The notes below the pieces were generated by a model. The model was not told the origin of the DNA. It was given only the letters and a program-made list of their open reading frames with translations, and did no database searches. A program made the translations under genes and the position numbers. This document shows positions 2,080 through 59,366 of a stretch of DNA of 64,000 nt, piece by piece. Within the stretch, counting starts at the first letter, position 1; each line of letters begins with the position of its first letter. Where the stretch lies: IMG/VR virus record IMGVR_UViG_3300035696_000004, positions 32,001 through 96,000 of that record; one strand, 5' to 3'. The DNA comes from a virus (Duplodnaviria; Caudoviricetes).

Positions 2080-3315
2080 TCAGATATCCGCTCCAATCTT
2101 TAAGAAGAAGGCGTAGCTGTTTTCCATCGTCAAGTCCGTCTCACATGCATCCGAAAGGCACACCTGATTCATGGCGTCTACCGTGTGATAGAGTCGGTTG
2201 TAGACAAAGTTGTCTACAACGTATAGTGCCCACTGACCATCTTCCCATTGCGGCCAGTACTCCGCACATTTACCCACACCATTGATCAAGAGATGTTCTG
2301 GATCCTCAAAGGCAATCAGTTGACCCGGGAATGGGGTCGTCTGAACAAACCCGCGTTCTTTGAACACATTGGGATTATCCAGAATAACAAAGAATGATTG
2401 AGGGAGTTGTACATACGCCAGCAAGTTCTCATCGCTCAGAAAGTCATCAACAACGATCTGAGAGGCATTGTTTCGTGTCCGCTGGATAGGAAGACTCGAG
2501 AGGTCGATTGTTTTCCATGATTCGTAATAGCGATCGAATAACGGAATGTTTTCGAAGTCAATAGCCACTTCCGTCGTCCCGACTTGATAGAACGATTTGT
2601 TGTCAATGAGATGGAGATACCCGCCCAACACCAACATCACAGTTTTATTCGTGATATCGATACCGAGATCAACAAACATCCGGTTCCGATACGATTGTGT
2701 GGAATCCTGCTTATAGATCATGGACGAAGTAATCGGAAGTTGTGTCAACGTTCCGAGCTTCTGGAAGTTCAAGATACCGACTTGATTTTTGTTCGCCAGT
2801 AAGCAGGACTTCATCCCTTCACGGATGTAACAACCGTTGGGATCCTCTACAGTCTGATGAAAGAAACCATTGACCGACACCAAGCAACTCTTTGCAAACA
2901 AGGAGAAGTCAACACCCGACTTCTCGAGGTAGAGCCATTTCTTGTCACCGGCTGGCAATGTTACGGTCGAAGAGATCGTAGGTTTGACCGGTGTAACACT
3001 GTAACCCGCCAAGAACGCATCTTTGAATCGAGCGTAGCGGGTATTTAGCGTCGTGAGTGTCGTGCTCGCAGGGAGCGTTGTAGCCCCATTAGCAGCCAAG
3101 AACGCATTGAAGGTAATCGCTTCACCACCGACCTTATATCGGATGTCGGCGAAGTGCAAGCAGACATTTTGATCGAGAAAGGGGTTCGACAAAATGATGT
3201 AAGCATCGAGATAGTCGCTGACGAGCGTGGAGATCAGCATATCGCCAATGTCGATACTCACCCAACGACCATCACCATCGATGGGTTTTGCAATAGCGGA
3301 TACGACATTATACAT
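2080..3315 (-). CDS. probable virion structural (baseplate/tail) protein, phiKZ-like
   Basis: 411-aa ORF divergent from the fibre genes; synteny with the phiKZ-like baseplate/fibre module (recalled, not searched). Confidence 0.6.
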   Translation of the reverse strand: MYNVVSAIAKPIDGDGRWVSIDIGDMLISTLVSDYLDAYIILSNPFLDQNVCLHFADIRYKVGGEAITFNAFLAANGATTLPASTTLTTLNTRYARFKDAFLAGYSVTPVKPTISSTVTLPAGDKKWLYLEKSGVDFSLFAKSCLVSVNGFFHQTVEDPNGCYIREGMKSCLLANKNQVGILNFQKLGTLTQLPITSSMIYKQDSTQSYRNRMFVDLGIDITNKTVMLVLGGYLHLIDNKSFYQVGTTEVAIDFENIPLFDRYYESWKTIDLSSLPIQRTRNNASQIVVDDFLSDENLLAYVQLPQSFFVILDNPNVFKERGFVQTTPFPGQLIAFEDPEHLLINGVGKCAEYWPQWEDGQWALYVVDNFVYNRLYHTVDAMNQVCLSDACETDLTMENSYAFFLKIGADI

Positions 3316-3420
3316 AGCGATCCCCGTAAAAATTGACTTGAAATACTATGGTTAGAAAGGCGGCCTATAGGATATTTGATCGTAGGCGTGACCTGAAACA
3401 GTCGAAATTTAGGAGGGCAC

Positions 3421-5859: not shown

Positions 5860-6888
5860 ATGACCACGTTGATTCAATACCCGCTAGATCCCACAGGGGC
5901 GTCTCCGACAAACCTCGTGGAGAATGAACCCCATACACTGACCACCCGAACGTATCGTTGCTTTGCGACCGATTACGGTGCGTTCTTCGAAACCTCCATG
6001 GTCGTGACCGATGTGGCGACAGGGAAACCACTTACCTCTGACCAGTTCTACTGCGCCGAGATGTACGAGCTTCCGTCGGCACGATACGGCCAAGAGATTG
6101 ATGCCATTGTCGTGATTACGGATAGCGCGATCAGCAACAATGTAACCGTCACGTATCAAGCACTGGGTGGTCCTTACAGTACGGCTGCTACGGCGATTAT
6201 CAGTCAGCTCAATGCGCTCCAGCTGGATGATCGCCCTATCTCGTGGCCGAACATCGAGATGAAGCCGTCCGAATACCCTCCGAGTTTCCACTTGCACGAT
6301 ATCGGGGATGTATACGGTTTCGAATATCTGGTTCATGCCATCGATCGAGTGAGGGCTGCAATCGAGCTGGGTGACGCTGCATCGAACGACGGTATCTACA
6401 AGTACATCGATTCACAGATCGCTGCTCTGAATTCGATTCTGAGTACCGCCAATGCCGCTTTGACAACCCACTTGAACAACTTTTCGAACCCGCATAACGT
6501 GACGGCTGCCCAAACAGGCGCCATGACGGCAGCGGATACTCAGTCGTTGGTATCAGGTGTCGAGTCGGAATTGCAAGCGCACATTCAGAATCAATCGAAT
6601 CCTCACGATGTGACGGCTGCCCAAATTGATGTCTATACGAAGGAACAGTCCGATTCGAACTATCCTTCGATGGCGCAATTTAACGCGTTGCTCGCCGCAT
6701 TCAATCAGCACATCCAAAACCAATCGAACCCGCACAATGTGACAGCGGCTCAATTGGGTGTGACAACGACGGCTTCGTTGACGGCTCTTCTGGCGGGCTA
6801 TCAGCCTCTGTCGAGTGCTGTCAATGCAAGCAACTTCAACTCGTACTGGGATACGCGCTTGAGTCAGCGCATGGCCTTCACGTATTGA
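5860..6888 (+). CDS. fibre-family paralog (virion structural protein)
   Basis: YPLDPTG.SP.NLV N-terminus like the 3421 ORF; three NPH.VTAAQ repeats; ATG at 5860 preferred over GTG 5845, which lies in the hairpin. Confidence 0.75.
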   Translation: MTTLIQYPLDPTGASPTNLVENEPHTLTTRTYRCFATDYGAFFETSMVVTDVATGKPLTSDQFYCAEMYELPSARYGQEIDAIVVITDSAISNNVTVTYQALGGPYSTAATAIISQLNALQLDDRPISWPNIEMKPSEYPPSFHLHDIGDVYGFEYLVHAIDRVRAAIELGDAASNDGIYKYIDSQIAALNSILSTANAALTTHLNNFSNPHNVTAAQTGAMTAADTQSLVSGVESELQAHIQNQSNPHDVTAAQIDVYTKEQSDSNYPSMAQFNALLAAFNQHIQNQSNPHNVTAAQLGVTTTASLTALLAGYQPLSSAVNASNFNSYWDTRLSQRMAFTY

Positions 6889-52424: not shown

Positions 52425-52976
52425 TTAGAGTTTGGTATTCAGGTGTTTCCAGGTACGACCTTTTACAGCAACGACGACAGTGGCGGCGCTGTAGCCCTCA
52501 TCCTTGGCTTTCTGAACGAGTTCAGCGCGCGTATGGTTCATGGCGTACTGTCGAAACTCGAGGACTTTCTTGCCATCAAGCTTTTTCCTAACCGTGTACG
52601 TACTCGCATCGTGGAGATCGCCGACAAAGCAGTTCTCCGGACCAAAGTCCAGATCCGTATTACGACGGCGAAGAGAGAAGACTTTCCCGAAGGTGGCTTT
52701 CTCCCATTCATCGACGGCTTCGGTGATCCAGCGAGCGAAGTTGGCAAAGCCTTCGGGGTTGTCCTTGTGCCACTCCCATTCGACTTCGATCCCATGCGCG
52801 CCGACCGCATGGTACATTTCAGAACCTTGATTGTAGCAACTGGCATGCATACGTGACCACCGATGATAATGCGGGTGCAGACTGCGACGGTCACGCGTGG
52901 CTGAATTGGTGCGAGAGCTTTTCTTACTCTCTTGGATTTCCGCTTCAGTCGGAAACAGGTTAGCAAGCGATAGCAT
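52425..52976 (-). CDS. HNH-homing-endonuclease-like protein (degenerate) with C-terminal HTH
   Basis: Y.RW..M...CY......Y...GA.GI.V..EW and P.NC motifs; start re-assigned to 52976. Confidence 0.7.
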   Translation of the reverse strand: MLSLANLFPTEAEIQESKKSSRTNSATRDRRSLHPHYHRWSRMHASCYNQGSEMYHAVGAHGIEVEWEWHKDNPEGFANFARWITEAVDEWEKATFGKVFSLRRRNTDLDFGPENCFVGDLHDASTYTVRKKLDGKKVLEFRQYAMNHTRAELVQKAKDEGYSAATVVVAVKGRTWKHLNTKL

Positions 52977-53514
52977 TGTTGGATTCCTTTTTACGTTCTT
53001 CTTTGAGTAATACCCTCGGTTCGACCGCGTCCACATTCGCCCAGTGTTGACTATTGAGGGCCGAAACGAGCGTTCTGTATTTGAGGGAAAACAGAGCCGC
53101 CAGTTCTTTGAGCGAGGTCATGGGATGGACACGAGCGTATTGTCTGATTTCAACGACCTTGTCGAATGTCAGTACACAACGGCTAGCACTTTGTTGTGTC
53201 TCGATATGCGACAAACGAATGATGCAGTTGTCAGGTGAGAAATTCCCTTTCGGATCCTTACGACCGACTTCAAACGTGGAGCCAGGGGTCCAGCCTAATT
53301 GATTCAATTCCTTTTCGATCCACTGCATGTAGTTGGCAAATCCCAGATAGTTATTCCGGGACCACTCCCATTCGACGCGTACCCCTTTGGCACCGTAGCG
53401 TCGATACTGTTCATTGCGCGGACTATAGCAACGACCGTGCATGCAGATCCAGCGGCGATAAAACGGATGCTTACCTACCGCTTCGAGTAACTTGCTATTC
53501 GGAAAACCGCCCAT
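52960..53514 (-). CDS. HNH-homing-endonuclease-like protein, tandem paralog
   Basis: HPFYRRWICMHGRCY..YGAKGVRVEWEW..GNFSPDNC; C-terminal HTH; start at 53514 after AAGGAA. Confidence 0.7.
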   Translation of the reverse strand: MGGFPNSKLLEAVGKHPFYRRWICMHGRCYSPRNEQYRRYGAKGVRVEWEWSRNNYLGFANYMQWIEKELNQLGWTPGSTFEVGRKDPKGNFSPDNCIIRLSHIETQQSASRCVLTFDKVVEIRQYARVHPMTSLKELAALFSLKYRTLVSALNSQHWANVDAVEPRVLLKEERKKESNNAIAC

Positions 53515-53568
53515 GATCGGTTCCTTGTTATTAAGAATATCTAACACAACATTTTTAAAGACGGCTTT

Positions 53569-53934
53569 TTAAATGATCGGGACACCTAGCGCACTGAAGA
53601 CGCTCACGATCAACGCGGTACCGATCATGACGAGCAGATGCACGTATTGATCGAACCCGAAGGACAACTTGTTTTTTATCTTCCAGTAGTCGGTGATCCC
53701 ATGGGTCAGGATCTGAACGACCATCGCGATGATGCTCCCGGTGAAGAGCAGAACGAACCCCGCATGGATCATGCAGTGTGCGAAGAGGGCGTGCGGCCAG
53801 ATGTCTTTACCTTCAACAGTCGAAGGGTTCTTGGCTTTTTCGAGGAAGTACCCTTGCAACGGGAAGTCCGCCAGGTAATGTCCAAAGACGAGCCACATCA
53901 AGAGCATGAAGAAGTTCGGATGGAAAAAGGGCAT
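53569..53934 (-). CDS. DUF3307-like membrane protein
   Basis: GH.LADFPLQ...H..IH...H.I.D..K...DQ..H motif pattern with TM helices. Confidence 0.75.
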   Translation of the reverse strand: MPFFHPNFFMLLMWLVFGHYLADFPLQGYFLEKAKNPSTVEGKDIWPHALFAHCMIHAGFVLLFTGSIIAMVVQILTHGITDYWKIKNKLSFGFDQYVHLLVMIGTALIVSVFSALGVPII

Positions 53935-54749: not shown

Positions 54750-55580
54750 TCAACCAAGTGGATGCTCTCTTTTCATGAATGCTTCGTAGAAGGTACCCTC
54801 AGGCACCCTCAGGAGAGACGGGTAACCCAGGTCGTCGATATAGTCCACTAAGGACTTTCGAGAGTCAGCGTAACGCATCAAGACCGAAACACTGGTCCGG
54901 ATATAACGGCACCTCGTTGCAGGATCGAGTTCACGGAATATGGAGTCGGCCATGTTAAAGACGTAATGCACCAGCATGAACTCGGCCGTCAGGCCCGGTA
55001 AAAATGACGACCATCTGCCCCCAAGATACTCGGTCATCGGAATTTCATCAACGAATTGTGGCATGATACCCGCGTCGCATTGGAGCACTGCCGTTTTCAT
55101 GCGTTTGAGGATATTAACTTCCAAAAAGAGAAGATCTTTCCGCTTATCTTCCGGCACATCAAAAAGATCGACGATGATCCGGGAAAAGTTGGCGCTTTCA
55201 AAAAAGTGAGAACGGTCCTTTGGGGATAAATTACGCGGGGCCAAGTACGGGCGCTGCGTCGATGCGCCAAATGGTTCGTTCGGTTGATGGGCGGTGGGTT
55301 GGGGGGCGTAATCGGAACGACACCGGATCTGACGAATACGAGCCAGGGTATAGCCCGTGAGTTTTTGGATGTTCTCGTCGCTTTCGGGTGTGTTCCTGAC
55401 AAAGTCTTCCAGGGTTTGGCCGATATCGGCGTGGATACCGACAAGGACGCGAGCACTCGCGTTGAGGTCGTCTTGAGTCGCGCCGCCGGCGCCAGCACGC
55501 ACGCCTTCGGCAAAGTAACGACGGCATTTGGTGAGCTCGGACTGAATGGCCATGATGAAACTATTGATGGTTCCCGACAT
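54750..55580 (-). CDS. hypothetical protein
   Basis: 276-aa ORF directly downstream of the ACP-like gene. Confidence 0.7.
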   Translation of the reverse strand: MSGTINSFIMAIQSELTKCRRYFAEGVRAGAGGATQDDLNASARVLVGIHADIGQTLEDFVRNTPESDENIQKLTGYTLARIRQIRCRSDYAPQPTAHQPNEPFGASTQRPYLAPRNLSPKDRSHFFESANFSRIIVDLFDVPEDKRKDLLFLEVNILKRMKTAVLQCDAGIMPQFVDEIPMTEYLGGRWSSFLPGLTAEFMLVHYVFNMADSIFRELDPATRCRYIRTSVSVLMRYADSRKSLVDYIDDLGYPSLLRVPEGTFYEAFMKREHPLG

Positions 55581-55581
55581 G

Positions 55582-55830
55582 TTAAGCCTTTCTTACGATA
55601 GTATTGATAATGTCCTGGACAGTTGTCCAGTCATCTGCGTCAACACCGAAGAAGCTGACTTCGGTGACACACTCCAGCTCCATCATCAGCTCATCGAGCT
55701 CGATGACCATGTCAAAGTACAGATCATCGACGAGCAAGGTATCCGGTTTGATCTGGTCCGCGTCAAATCCGAAATCCTCGACGAATATTTTCTGGACGAT
55801 TTGGAAAGCATCTTGTTCGCTGATCGACAT
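55582..55830 (-). CDS. acyl carrier protein-like protein lacking the attachment serine
   Basis: V.KI.VE.FG....IKPD..LVDDL..D...ELMMELE..F....D....TTVQD.I; DSL is replaced by DMV (checked in DNA: GAC ATG GTC). Confidence 0.8.
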   Translation of the reverse strand: MSISEQDAFQIVQKIFVEDFGFDADQIKPDTLLVDDLYFDMVIELDELMMELECVTEVSFFGVDADDWTTVQDIINTIVRKA

Positions 55831-55841
55831 GAGGGGTCTCT

Positions 55842-56165
55842 TTATTCAGTGAGTGTCGGGATTGTGATTTCTTGGAGCACCCTGAAAAGCTTTTCACCGC
55901 GGGCTGTGCAAGCATAATTAACGAGCTTACCGGTTGTAGCGATGAGAACGATGTAGCCGTCCTTGATCAAGTCGTCGACAGACTTATGATTCGGAAGGCT
56001 TGTTATCGGCATCGGACCGATCGTGTAGGTATCGAAGATGACACTGATGCTGGCTTTGTTCATGGTGTCAGAAAAGTCGATGATCTTGGCGGCTTCACGG
56101 ACCTCTGCGATCGATGCGGTCTCGATGTCCGCACCGACGACACTCAGGAGTTTGGTGATATTCAT
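55842..56165 (-). CDS. hypothetical protein, possibly with a C-terminal winged helix
   Basis: L..DGYI......Y..T.RGE.L pattern. Confidence 0.6.
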   Translation of the reverse strand: MNITKLLSVVGADIETASIAEVREAAKIIDFSDTMNKASISVIFDTYTIGPMPITSLPNHKSVDDLIKDGYIVLIATTGKLVNYACTARGEKLFRVLQEITIPTLTE

Positions 56166-56168
56166 TTT

Positions 56169-56606
56169 TTAACCTTGTTTGAATTCAGGGAGTTCGCCAA
56201 AGAGGCGTTCGGCTTTGAATCGAGCCACCCCAACGACAGCAGCAGCGTAAGCGACCCACGGATTACTCGACATGACAACCTCGTCGTAGTAGTCGCCAAC
56301 ATCCTCAGAGCGAAAAGCAGTATGCAACACAGAGTACGCCAGATAGTACTTGTACTCATTGGTGGCAGTTTCTTCGCAGATCTTCGCGTGAATAATACAC
56401 GGATTATCTCCATCGATCTCGATGCTGAGTTTTCGAGCGAGTTCGAACACATCCGCGGGGTTGTTTCTCGGATCCCAATTACATTCCCGAGTACCCCGTT
56501 TGATCATCAGGTGCGGTGCTGTCGATCCCACACCCTCCACGAATTGGATCACACCCAACCCGATCAATTTGGCCATCAATCGGAAATCACGTTCAACTGT
56601 CTTCAT
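56169..56606 (-). CDS. phage ABA-sandwich-like protein
   Basis: WDPRNN.AD.F.LA.KL.I.I motif. Confidence 0.6.
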   Translation of the reverse strand: MKTVERDFRLMAKLIGLGVIQFVEGVGSTAPHLMIKRGTRECNWDPRNNPADVFELARKLSIEIDGDNPCIIHAKICEETATNEYKYYLAYSVLHTAFRSEDVGDYYDEVVMSSNPWVAYAAAVVGVARFKAERLFGELPEFKQG

Positions 56607-56630: not shown

Positions 56631-57065
56631 TCATTCCGAGCAGTCAAAGTTCGACTCGATAAACCGATCGAAGCTCGCATCATCAGCTTCCAGAATCTGG
56701 CTAGCTACTCGAATGACCGCTGTGACCAAAGCGACCACACCCTTACCTGCCGGAATGATCTCTAGCGAAGGGTCGAAATAGCGTTCACGCGGCGGCCAGC
56801 CGAGCCGCACCCCAACACTCCCAAGTACGTTCTCGCTCGCAATATACTGACCATGAACACCGACATACTTGTCGTTGTCATACAGGAAGGGATCATTACA
56901 GGATGTTCCCAACCCAAGCAACGTAATCAGTTCGAAGCAGTCTGCGCTAAATTCACGCAATTCACGCAAATTCTCAGGGCTGCTGAACAATTCCGTTTCG
57001 AGAAAACTCGAAACTTTTTCTTTGTCCGGCCGGCAGGCCAGGAAACCGAACAGGAGAGGGCTCAT
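56631..57065 (-). CDS. hypothetical protein
   Basis: ATGA overlap; KYVGVH..Y..S. Confidence 0.6.
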   Translation of the reverse strand: MSPLLFGFLACRPDKEKVSSFLETELFSSPENLRELREFSADCFELITLLGLGTSCNDPFLYDNDKYVGVHGQYIASENVLGSVGVRLGWPPRERYFDPSLEIIPAGKGVVALVTAVIRVASQILEADDASFDRFIESNFDCSE

Positions 57066-57559
57066 TTGAAATTCTCCGGATTAAACTCGGGAAGGTGCCC
57101 GAAGAGTTTCTCAGCCTTCAAAACCGCGACCCGAAAGATGGCGCGCCGCACGGCAAAGACCTTGATTTCGGGTTGTCGAAGTTCATGAGCCGTCAGATCA
57201 CCATGAAGCTTCCATGACACACAGCGGCGTTCAAAGCGCCGCTCCAAGGAATCGGTATCGATTGTGATCCAGGCCTCGACGCTATGTAAAGCTGGGTTGG
57301 TTTCCAACTCGATGTCTTGTGCGACCATCAGATCAAAGGCTTGTGCCGAAAGGTCGTCAGGATTCCATTTCAGTTCGTCCCCGTTAGAAACCCGATAATA
57401 CACACCGTCGCCCGCGATGATCTTAAAATCAAGACCCATCAACTTGGCAGTCAGCGCAGTGTCCCGCATGCTCACCGAGCCACTAACCACCGCTAGCGGT
57501 TTTGTTGATTCTTTTACGGGTCTGACAATGAGATCAAACCCTTCATTCTCTTCGCTCAT
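57062..57559 (-). CDS. ABA-sandwich-like paralog
   Basis: WNP.D.SA.AF.LM; C-terminus KAEKLFGHLPEF matches KAERLFGELPEF of the 56169 ORF. Confidence 0.65.
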   Translation of the reverse strand: MSEENEGFDLIVRPVKESTKPLAVVSGSVSMRDTALTAKLMGLDFKIIAGDGVYYRVSNGDELKWNPDDLSAQAFDLMVAQDIELETNPALHSVEAWITIDTDSLERRFERRCVSWKLHGDLTAHELRQPEIKVFAVRRAIFRVAVLKAEKLFGHLPEFNPENFK

Positions 57560-57704: not shown

Positions 57705-59366
57705 TTATTCGAAGCGATCCAGTCGATACGACGTCCAGCCCAGATCTGTCTTCACTTCGAGGAGGACGTTGGGGTCAAAGCTCAGGAACCACCCCAGCGC
57801 CATCTGACCGCCGACGTCTCGGCCAGCGGCCTGATGAGTCGACGAATAGGCTTCGATCGTGGCACGGACCCCGTGCAGTTCCGAACGAAGAATCTCCGGG
57901 AAGAGACACGAAGCTATCTGGATATGTTCTTTCGGCACAGCGCCTTCGAGGACGAACAGGTGGCTTTCCTTGAAATTGTGCTTCGTTTCCGGATCTTTCC
58001 AGGTCGGAACCGACGGCAACACGGCCAGTACTTCAACCGTGCGATTCAGCGAGTAATCGGTAAACACCGGATGCGTCACATGGACGTACCAGTTGAACGG
58101 ATTCCGGGCCTTGTCCGTTTCGTAGCTGAACAACCGGCCAGCAGCCGGATCGACCCCGGTCAAAATACCGCCCAGGTTCGTACGCGGTACGTTAAAGTGC
58201 AACCGGATTCGTTGTGCCGTCGGGAGGATGGTCCTGGCGAACACGTCGAAGGTTTTGACGCCGCCATAGACTTCGCTGACTTCGTTCTCGGCTTTCGGTT
58301 TTTGATCGTCCCCTTTTCGAGCGATATCCCCGAAGATGCCGCCTTTCGATTCCTTGGCGGGTTCGGGAGTTGTGCTCCAGAGAGGCGTCGTAAACGCCAG
58401 GACTTCATCGAGCGTTGCGAAACGACGTTGCAGTGCCGTCTCCAGACCCAGTTCAGCGATGAGCTTTTCAGCTTGCTGGACGTTCCCTTCCGTCGGCGCG
58501 GCAGTCGGCCGTTGATAGACCCACGGCGCGACGATCTTGTTGTGGAAACGAATGATCTGGTCGGTCGACATCCCGCTCTGGATATTCTCGAGCAGAGTAC
58601 CGACAGTGCTATCTCGGAACTCGCACCAGCCGTTCGGAGCGATGGTTGCTTCTTTGAAGAGCAGGTTCGACAGATGAAGTTTGTTCTTCACCGTGTCTTT
58701 CATCGTGCTGACCTTATAGAGCCATTTAACCCAGGGGATGAACTTTTCGCCGCTTTGAATCTCTGCGGATTGCAGGATCAGGAGCGCTTTTTTGAAGAGT
58801 TCGGTCCGTGCTTCGCCGAGCTTGAACAGTCCGCTGACGAGGACGCGATGGCGTTCGCGATACGCTGCTCGGCAGGTGCGATTCGTTTGACGGGTGCTCG
58901 AGAAGGACCTGGTGATTTCTTCCGGAACATAGAGGTGGTTGAAGCCACCGCTTTCATGAGCACCCCATTCACCGCCAGTGGCGCTATTGCCGGGGTAGTA
59001 GAACGTCGTGTCCACGACACCGGCACTTTCAACACTGTGTTTGAGTGTTGCCAGCGCATCTTCGAAACCGGCCGGGGCATCTTCGGGATCCCAGAGTGCC
59101 GACTTCAGGGAACCGTCTTCGAGAATGTATACGGCGTTGCCGTACATGGAAATGAACCGGCGGCAGGTCGAGCAGTTGTGTTCTTGGCGGTACGCTTCTT
59201 CAAAACTTTCGAGGAAAGCCGAAGAGAGGTGCTTGATCTTGACCGTGAACAGATCACGACCGTGGAGCTCGATGTTCTTTTCGAGAGTGGCTCGCACATG
59301 GGCGGCCAGTTCCTGATACGAGGCCCGGATCGAATCATTTTTGGATTCAGCTTGGAGAGCTTGCAT
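57705..59366 (-). CDS. RQxHNCxxCRxF family protein (long form)
   Basis: RQEHNCSTCRRFISMYG..ALW; C-terminal LFPEILRSELHGVRATIEAYS. Confidence 0.8.
   Translation of the reverse strand: MQALQAESKNDSIRASYQELAAHVRATLEKNIELHGRDLFTVKIKHLSSAFLESFEEAYRQEHNCSTCRRFISMYGNAVYILEDGSLKSALWDPEDAPAGFEDALATLKHSVESAGVVDTTFYYPGNSATGGEWGAHESGGFNHLYVPEEITRSFSSTRQTNRTCRAAYRERHRVLVSGLFKLGEARTELFKKALLILQSAEIQSGEKFIPWVKWLYKVSTMKDTVKNKLHLSNLLFKEATIAPNGWCEFRDSTVGTLLENIQSGMSTDQIIRFHNKIVAPWVYQRPTAAPTEGNVQQAEKLIAELGLETALQRRFATLDEVLAFTTPLWSTTPEPAKESKGGIFGDIARKGDDQKPKAENEVSEVYGGVKTFDVFARTILPTAQRIRLHFNVPRTNLGGILTGVDPAAGRLFSYETDKARNPFNWYVHVTHPVFTDYSLNRTVEVLAVLPSVPTWKDPETKHNFKESHLFVLEGAVPKEHIQIASCLFPEILRSELHGVRATIEAYSSTHQAAGRDVGGQMALGWFLSFDPNVLLEVKTDLGWTSYRLDRFE

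Follow-up and report, generated by a model that had tools for sequence, protein, structure and literature searches.

The stretch of DNA considered here (the window, 64,000 bp) corresponds to bases 32001-96000 of a viral genome of 219,772 bp (219.8 kb; GC, 51%) that carries direct terminal repeats and is rated 100% complete. The 747-aa major head protein of this genome was assigned to phrog_3231, and its nearest cultured relatives are those of phiKZ-like jumbo phages, namely Burkholderia phage FLC9 (52.7%), the Ralstonia phages RP12 and RP31 (39%) and the Chiangmaivirus group (about 34%). The closest cultured relatives of the phage infect Burkholderia and Ralstonia, and the sequencing runs holding the DNA of the region are peat metagenomes, with no RNA run among those listed. 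The locus under study encodes a small protein related to acyl carrier proteins (ACPs), and its features are the following:

55582..55830, minus strand: coding sequence of the serine-less ACP-fold protein, 82 aa, net charge -16 (ORF list, phmmer, AF2, Foldseek, ESM Atlas)
55708..55710, minus strand: ATG codon of Met41, at the Ppant-Ser position of the DSL motif (alignments A1 and A2, hmmalign, reading of the DNA)
55663..55707, minus strand: helix II, by which ACPs are recognised (residues 42-56; H42-56 in the DSSP assignment of the AF2 model)
55842..56165, minus strand: upstream 107-aa gene, possibly winged-helix (PadR/MarR-like; no Pfam or PHROG match, lead from the Atlas)
54750..55580, minus strand: downstream 276-aa orphan gene (ORF list, sequence)

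The ACP-like gene belongs to a tight co-directional array of small minus-strand genes of no known function: its start lies 11 nt past the upstream 107-aa gene, and its TAA stop is located 1 nt before the ATG of the downstream 276-aa gene. Plus-strand ORFs overlapping the ACP-like gene were unsupported and were treated as shadows. Searches of Pfam and PHROGs with the ACP-like protein and nine neighbours were uninformative as regards the ACP-like gene and the genes directly beside it. For the 107-aa protein encoded upstream, the Atlas model resembled PadR/MarR winged-helix clusters at a TM of 0.6-0.7, which is considered as a lead only; for the downstream 276-aa protein, no family was found in Pfam or PHROGs and no relative among viruses, and its Atlas model was poor.

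Just upstream of the ACP-like gene, two minus-strand genes (56169-56606 and 57062-57559) encode paralogous small proteins (30% identity, E = 3e-9) that have a C-terminal LFGxLPEF motif in common, the longer one matching phrog_5086 (unknown function). At 57705-59366 on the same strand, a 553-aa protein was assigned to phrog_1735 (and to DUF8224 on an identical contig); its full-length relatives, at about 33% identity, were found in more than 500 phage records, all annotated as hypothetical, and span very different phages (of Pseudomonas, Xanthomonas, Stenotrophomonas, Salmonella and Bacillus). The block downstream of the ACP-like gene ends with an HNH endonuclease-like gene (52960-53547, minus strand, phrog_3377) and, at the same end, with the gene of a DUF3307 membrane protein (53569-53934, minus strand, phrog_2470).

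The earlier note on this DNA had described the product of the gene as an acidic protein resembling AcpP over its full length, a description that was borne out. The ORF contains the motifs LLVDDLYFDM, DELMMELE and TTVQDII, and a phmmer search against PDB sequences aligned residues 4-81 with the Thermotoga maritima ACP (6lvt/6lvu, E = 6.1e-5), ACPs accounting for 42 of the 44 matches listed. An exhaustive phmmer search of 1.84 billion representatives returned the protein itself, followed by stand-alone ACPs with E-values from 9e-6 to 8e-4. Multi-domain matches of 773-2,879 aa, which contain tandem canonical ACP repeats and look like PUFA-synthase-type arrays, owed their high scores to summation and were set aside as irrelevant. 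No Pfam family, PF00550 included, matched the 82-aa protein at E = 0.1 or at E = 10 (the protein lies below the gathering score), and a PF00550 scan of the whole genome does not report the ORF. The profile phrog_5934 (“acyl carrier protein”) could be aligned over the full length of the protein with E = 0.067 (14.3 bits), and gave no match at E = 0.01.

Structure prediction, proposed in the earlier note as a check, yielded an ACP-like fold. The AF2 model built on an alignment of 14 sequences reached a pLDDT of 93.1, a value that leans on the ACP alignment, and comprises helices at residues 5-20, 42-56 and 71-81 with a short turn at 65-67; it superseded a poor model obtained from the single sequence (pLDDT 48.6). 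Foldseek comparison of the retained model with the PDB gave the T. maritima ACP as best match (6lvu_A, TM 0.88/0.92, rmsd 1.3 A), and 50 of the 50 matches listed were ACP chains or ACP subunits of complexes. The ESM Atlas model, which is alignment-free, had a pLDDT of 0.84 and a pTM of 0.80 and matched PP-binding clusters at a TM of 0.82-0.88, and numerous phage ACPs, among them those of phiCbK, PhiW-14, ViI and pf16, came up in a fold search of BFVD. At the level of structural models, the 82-aa protein is confirmed as a real ACP-fold protein, with the four-helix fold predicted to be present.

These fold matches bear on a reading in which the ACP scaffold happens to underlie an acidic decoy of a general kind that has nothing to do with ACP biology and that, for instance, mimics DNA or inhibits a nuclease or defence protein of the host. 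Such a role would agree with a net charge of -16 in 82 residues and with a location amid the small accessory genes of a jumbo phage, but we consider it very unlikely, as the strong fold matches are all to ACPs and none is to a known DNA-mimic fold, and as a charge of this order is typical of ordinary ACPs (pI of about 4, PMC3340395). Compared with DNA mimics of the Ocr/ArdA type, the window protein has no DNA-mimic fold, ACPs being the only confident matches in the fold searches.

When compared with type II AcpP (PF00550; T. maritima 6lvu, E. coli 1l0h), the window protein is alike in length and in its topology of four helices, and likewise has an acidic helix II, the DSL Asp and a C-terminal helix with TVxDI, whereas it differs by a Met in place of the Ppant Ser, an insertion, Tyr/Phe in place of Gly/Ala and a Trp at the position of Ile62, as well as by the lack of a Pfam match and of cognate enzymes in the genome. 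In all HMMER and MAFFT alignments D40 falls on the Asp and M41 on the Ser of DSL, and the ATG codon of M41 was read directly in the DNA, so that the replacement of this Ser by Met reported in the earlier note holds. The loss of the serine is independent of the exact alignment, since neither Ser nor Thr is present from residue 32 to residue 55 (direct reading). Helix II begins at residue 42 in the AF2 model, which places M41 at the N-cap, the position that Ser36 occupies in E. coli AcpP. A one-residue insertion lies within the first turns of helix II (the extra residue being V42 in most alignments), the small Gly-Ala preceding the motif is replaced by the bulky Tyr38-Phe39, and the Trp at the position of E. 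coli Ile62 was placed by our own mapping from HMMER alignments to solved ACPs.

Contigs of four sample accessions (ENA ERZ27256877, JGI 3300033402, SRR9711195 and SRR9711196) encode an identical 82-aa protein. The ERZ27256877 and 3300033402 contigs match the window at 100% DNA identity, over 8,249 and 1,037 bases, respectively, although the window itself may derive from some of these samples. Because identical DNA occurs in assemblies filed under other sample accessions, a one-off assembly or sequencing error, which had been named beforehand as a possible refutation, appears an unlikely cause of Met41; the ATG codon (55710..55708) is moreover at least 2 nt away from all six Ser codons.

As judged from the sequence, the combination of Met41, the adjacent insertion and Tyr/Phe leaves no site for the prosthetic group, hence none to which an acyl chain could be attached, and a carrier role is excluded by known chemistry. 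The earlier claim that the protein cannot be phosphopantetheinylated is supported as far as the known chemistry goes, the Ppant Ser being absent. We regard it as extremely improbable that the protein has remained a carrier through modification at a different residue or through the action of an unusual transferase: the intact fold, and nothing further, speaks for it, and against it stand the facts that S2, S4 and S59 are the only serines, none of them at the N-terminus of helix II, and that the genome has no PPTase (PF01648). Searches of the complete 219.8-kb genome with Pfam profiles found, besides the lack of PPTase, no ketosynthase (PF00109), no AMP-binding/adenylating enzyme (PF00501), no PlsC-type acyltransferase (PF01553) and no second PP-binding carrier protein, so that the phage has no pathway in which a carrier could be used. 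A weak PF00550 match at 119273-119857 corresponded to a 194-aa Ser/Thr-rich protein that is not carrier-like, and was discarded.

No ortholog of the 82-aa protein was found in about 15 billion proteins; word-indexed searches, the exhaustive search of representatives, an IMG/VR scan and tblastn against GenBank phages all gave none. The single candidate ortholog from IMG/VR had only the word FVEDFGFD in common, with no ACP motif in the stretch translated, and was discarded. The closest phage, FLC9, possesses the 553-aa DUF8224 gene, but with different genes beside it, and no synteny of the ACP-like locus was found with FLC9 or with the Chiangmaivirus ACP-like locus.

The Ser is present in 118 of the 118 best profile relatives, which indicates that Met41 is not ordinary variation. 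In a survey of IMG/VR with a canonical ACP alignment, DSL was found in 80 of the 80 best phage ACPs, a count that is not a measure of the frequency of Ser-less proteins since, of the two search patterns, one includes the Ser. The window protein was matched by phmmer to 64 ORFs from these 80 loci with a best score of 32.9 bits, the best solved bacterial ACP scoring 27.2 bits. Compared with the orphan phage ACPs of PHROG 5934 (e.g. ORF32 of Erythrobacter phage vB_EliS-R6L), it is likewise a stand-alone small ACP amid small accessory genes, and it differs by its Met, where the best 80 IMG/VR phage ACPs have DSL, and by its distance to the profile (only E = 0.067). Phage-encoded ACPs are known and their function has been called unclear (PMC5463345, PMC13573597), that of ORF32 included (PMC5463345).

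Among the 13 nearest stand-alone proteins from the exhaustive search, three are without the Ser, with Glu in P0007 and P0011 and Ala in P0017. P0007 (73 aa, 6001-6222 of a phage-like 46-kb Logan SRR30965925 contig) carries Glu for the Ppant Ser (DLYADE-LD), is a firm member of phrog_5934 (E = 4e-17) and has typical phage early genes as neighbours (Lar, DUF3799 and AAA_24); P0007 is itself an orphan, and DSL is present in the viral protein nearest to it in IMG/VR. The 91-aa ACP-like protein of Chiangmaivirus (phrog_31629) has DAL in RSF1 (NC_028899.1, 193146-193418) and DSL in seven sister phages (FLC6, FLC8, FLC4-4C, FLC4-11C, RSL2, RsoM3USA and SURPRISE13), the RSF1 protein being 78-79% identical to most sisters and 68% to that of SURPRISE13. 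The Ser-to-Ala change of RSF1 is a natural variant in cultured phages and is directly testable. This family (RSF1, RSL2, FLC6/8, RsoM3USA, SURPRISE13) resembles the window protein in its phiKZ-like jumbo phage carrier and, for RSF1, in the loss of the Ser, but identity is 18-19% and the N-terminal half and the neighbours are different, so that it is not an ortholog. Judging from these sequences, loss of the Ser recurs sporadically in phage ACP-like proteins that are otherwise conserved. Phage ACPs and the Ppant-less mitochondrial ACPs of apicomplexans are known, whereas our literature search found no paper on serine-less phage ACPs.

An 80-aa ACP-like protein (3167-3409 of a Logan SRR13489926 contig) has Ala for Ser (DLCFDA-LD) and adjoins PGA_cap and acetyltransferase-like genes; it is not obviously from a phage, which suggests that serine-less ACP-like proteins are also found in cellular loci.

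This distribution has to be weighed against the state of the gene when considering that it could be the decaying remnant of a phage auxiliary ACP gene, whose Ser disappeared through drift and whose ORF has persisted by chance, with no function. The lack of any ortholog in about 15 billion proteins, the location in a variable block absent from FLC9, scores that miss the Pfam threshold and are not significant with phrog_5934, and the fact that the other Ser-less phage ACPs are single tips among Ser-bearing relatives (RSF1 is one of eight, P0007 an orphan) speak for decay. The ORF is however intact and tightly packed in its operon, its fold is predicted with high confidence whether or not an alignment is used, the pattern of the hydrophobic core and the acidic helix II have been kept despite a divergence of more than 50%, and the motif is surrounded by several coordinated changes rather than by one single change; we judge decay to be quite unlikely. 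That a protein diverged by more than 50% from every known ACP is still given a confident fold, by AF2 as well as by the alignment-free Atlas, argues for selection on the predicted fold after the loss of the Ser.

ACPs dock via their acidic helix II onto basic patches of partner enzymes. According to our own mapping from HMMER alignments to solved ACPs, all of which are without the extra residue after the Ser position, E44, E47 and E53 of the window protein align with D38, E41 and E47 of E. coli AcpP, and D40 with D35. D46 and E51 are additional acidic residues of helix II, and E48 and E49 of E. coli AcpP are not kept, being replaced by Cys and Val. The acidic recognition helix II is, by this mapping to E. 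coli AcpP, retained in the 82-aa protein. The residues of E. coli AcpP in contact with AcpS are D35, E41 and E47/E48, and mutating D35, E41 and E47 abolishes modification by AcpS through the loss of ion pairs (bioRxiv 10.1101/2025.01.28.635281); ACP also binds SpoT, MukB, IscS and YbgC (PMC3340395). AcpS and other partners approach an ACP exactly at the site of the inserted residue and of the bulky Tyr38/Phe39, and these residues might block docking rather than mimic it.

We consider it probable that the protein is a carrier-dead ACP fold acting by protein binding, either as a decoy or as an adaptor. That a serine-less ACP can be functional is known from the mACP of Plasmodium falciparum, which has no Ppant and works by protein binding, since it binds and stabilises Isd11-Nfs1 and has an essential role (PMC8547962). 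The window protein and mACP are alike in keeping the ACP fold without the prosthetic-group Ser; mACP differs in being a eukaryotic organellar protein with a LYR-type partner, and the homology between the two is that of the superfamily only. This precedent supports an adaptor or structural subunit, i.e. an ACP fold that works without the cofactor as a binding module, stabilising or regulating some complex of the phage or of the host, as do the tight operon, with a stop 1 nt from the ATG of the 276-aa orphan, and the Foldseek matches to non-lipid complexes that have ACP as a subunit (MukBEF, complex I and MmpL5). We nevertheless hold the adaptor role to be unlikely, as no partner was found and the neighbours are lineage-specific orphans without a co-occurrence signal.

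The reading that we tentatively put forward, as a possibility still short of an even chance, is that of a non-loadable competitor for the ACP-docking sites of the host, i.e. an inhibitory apo-ACP mimic. A member of the ACP superfamily would have lost its carrier function and kept the ACP core and the acidic helix II; made during infection, the protein would occupy ACP-docking sites on host enzymes, and host ACP-dependent reactions would be depressed. The most direct candidate target would be the AcpS-type phosphopantetheinyl transferase, because AcpS naturally binds the apo form, and further candidates would be fatty-acid and lipid acyltransferases that dock via helix II. Apo-ACP inhibits glycerol-3-phosphate acyltransferase more than holo-ACP does, and growth stops. 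The binding of host ACP partners, the choice of these partners and the inhibitory effect are what we infer here.

The targets named for such a decoy are not equally plausible. Some of the ACP partners named depend on the holo form; the MukB and PlsB interactions are described in E. coli-type systems (enterobacteria). SpoT has been reported not to bind apo-ACP, and the proposal in the earlier note that SpoT-mediated (p)ppGpp signalling could be blunted is accordingly unlikely. The SpoT and MukB versions of the decoy idea are the least likely ones, the former because SpoT needs the holo form and the latter because the nearest cultured relatives of the phage infect Burkholderia and Ralstonia rather than enterobacteria.

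A broader proposition, which we hold to be rather doubtful, is that carrier-dead ACP mimics form a class of proteins with which phages take over their hosts, and that the losses of the Ser, which would be repeated and independent among unrelated phage ACPs, are convergent evolution towards this role. ACP is among the most connected and most abundant bacterial proteins, and apo-ACP is toxic to E. coli. If the proposition is true, such a class would jam the host ACP hub, for example at the activation of AcpP by AcpS, at the lipid and lipid A acyltransferases, or at acyl-ACP-dependent signal synthases, and it would account for the orphan ACP genes that many phages carry with a function called unclear. 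One orphan gene on its own is too little evidence for such a class; taken with the further serine-less phage ACPs, it makes up a set that can be tested cheaply. A natural, genetically fixed apo-ACP mimic would represent a simple new way for a phage to shut down host lipid metabolism or ACP-dependent signalling, and would provide a ready-made probe of the interfaces between ACP and its partners.
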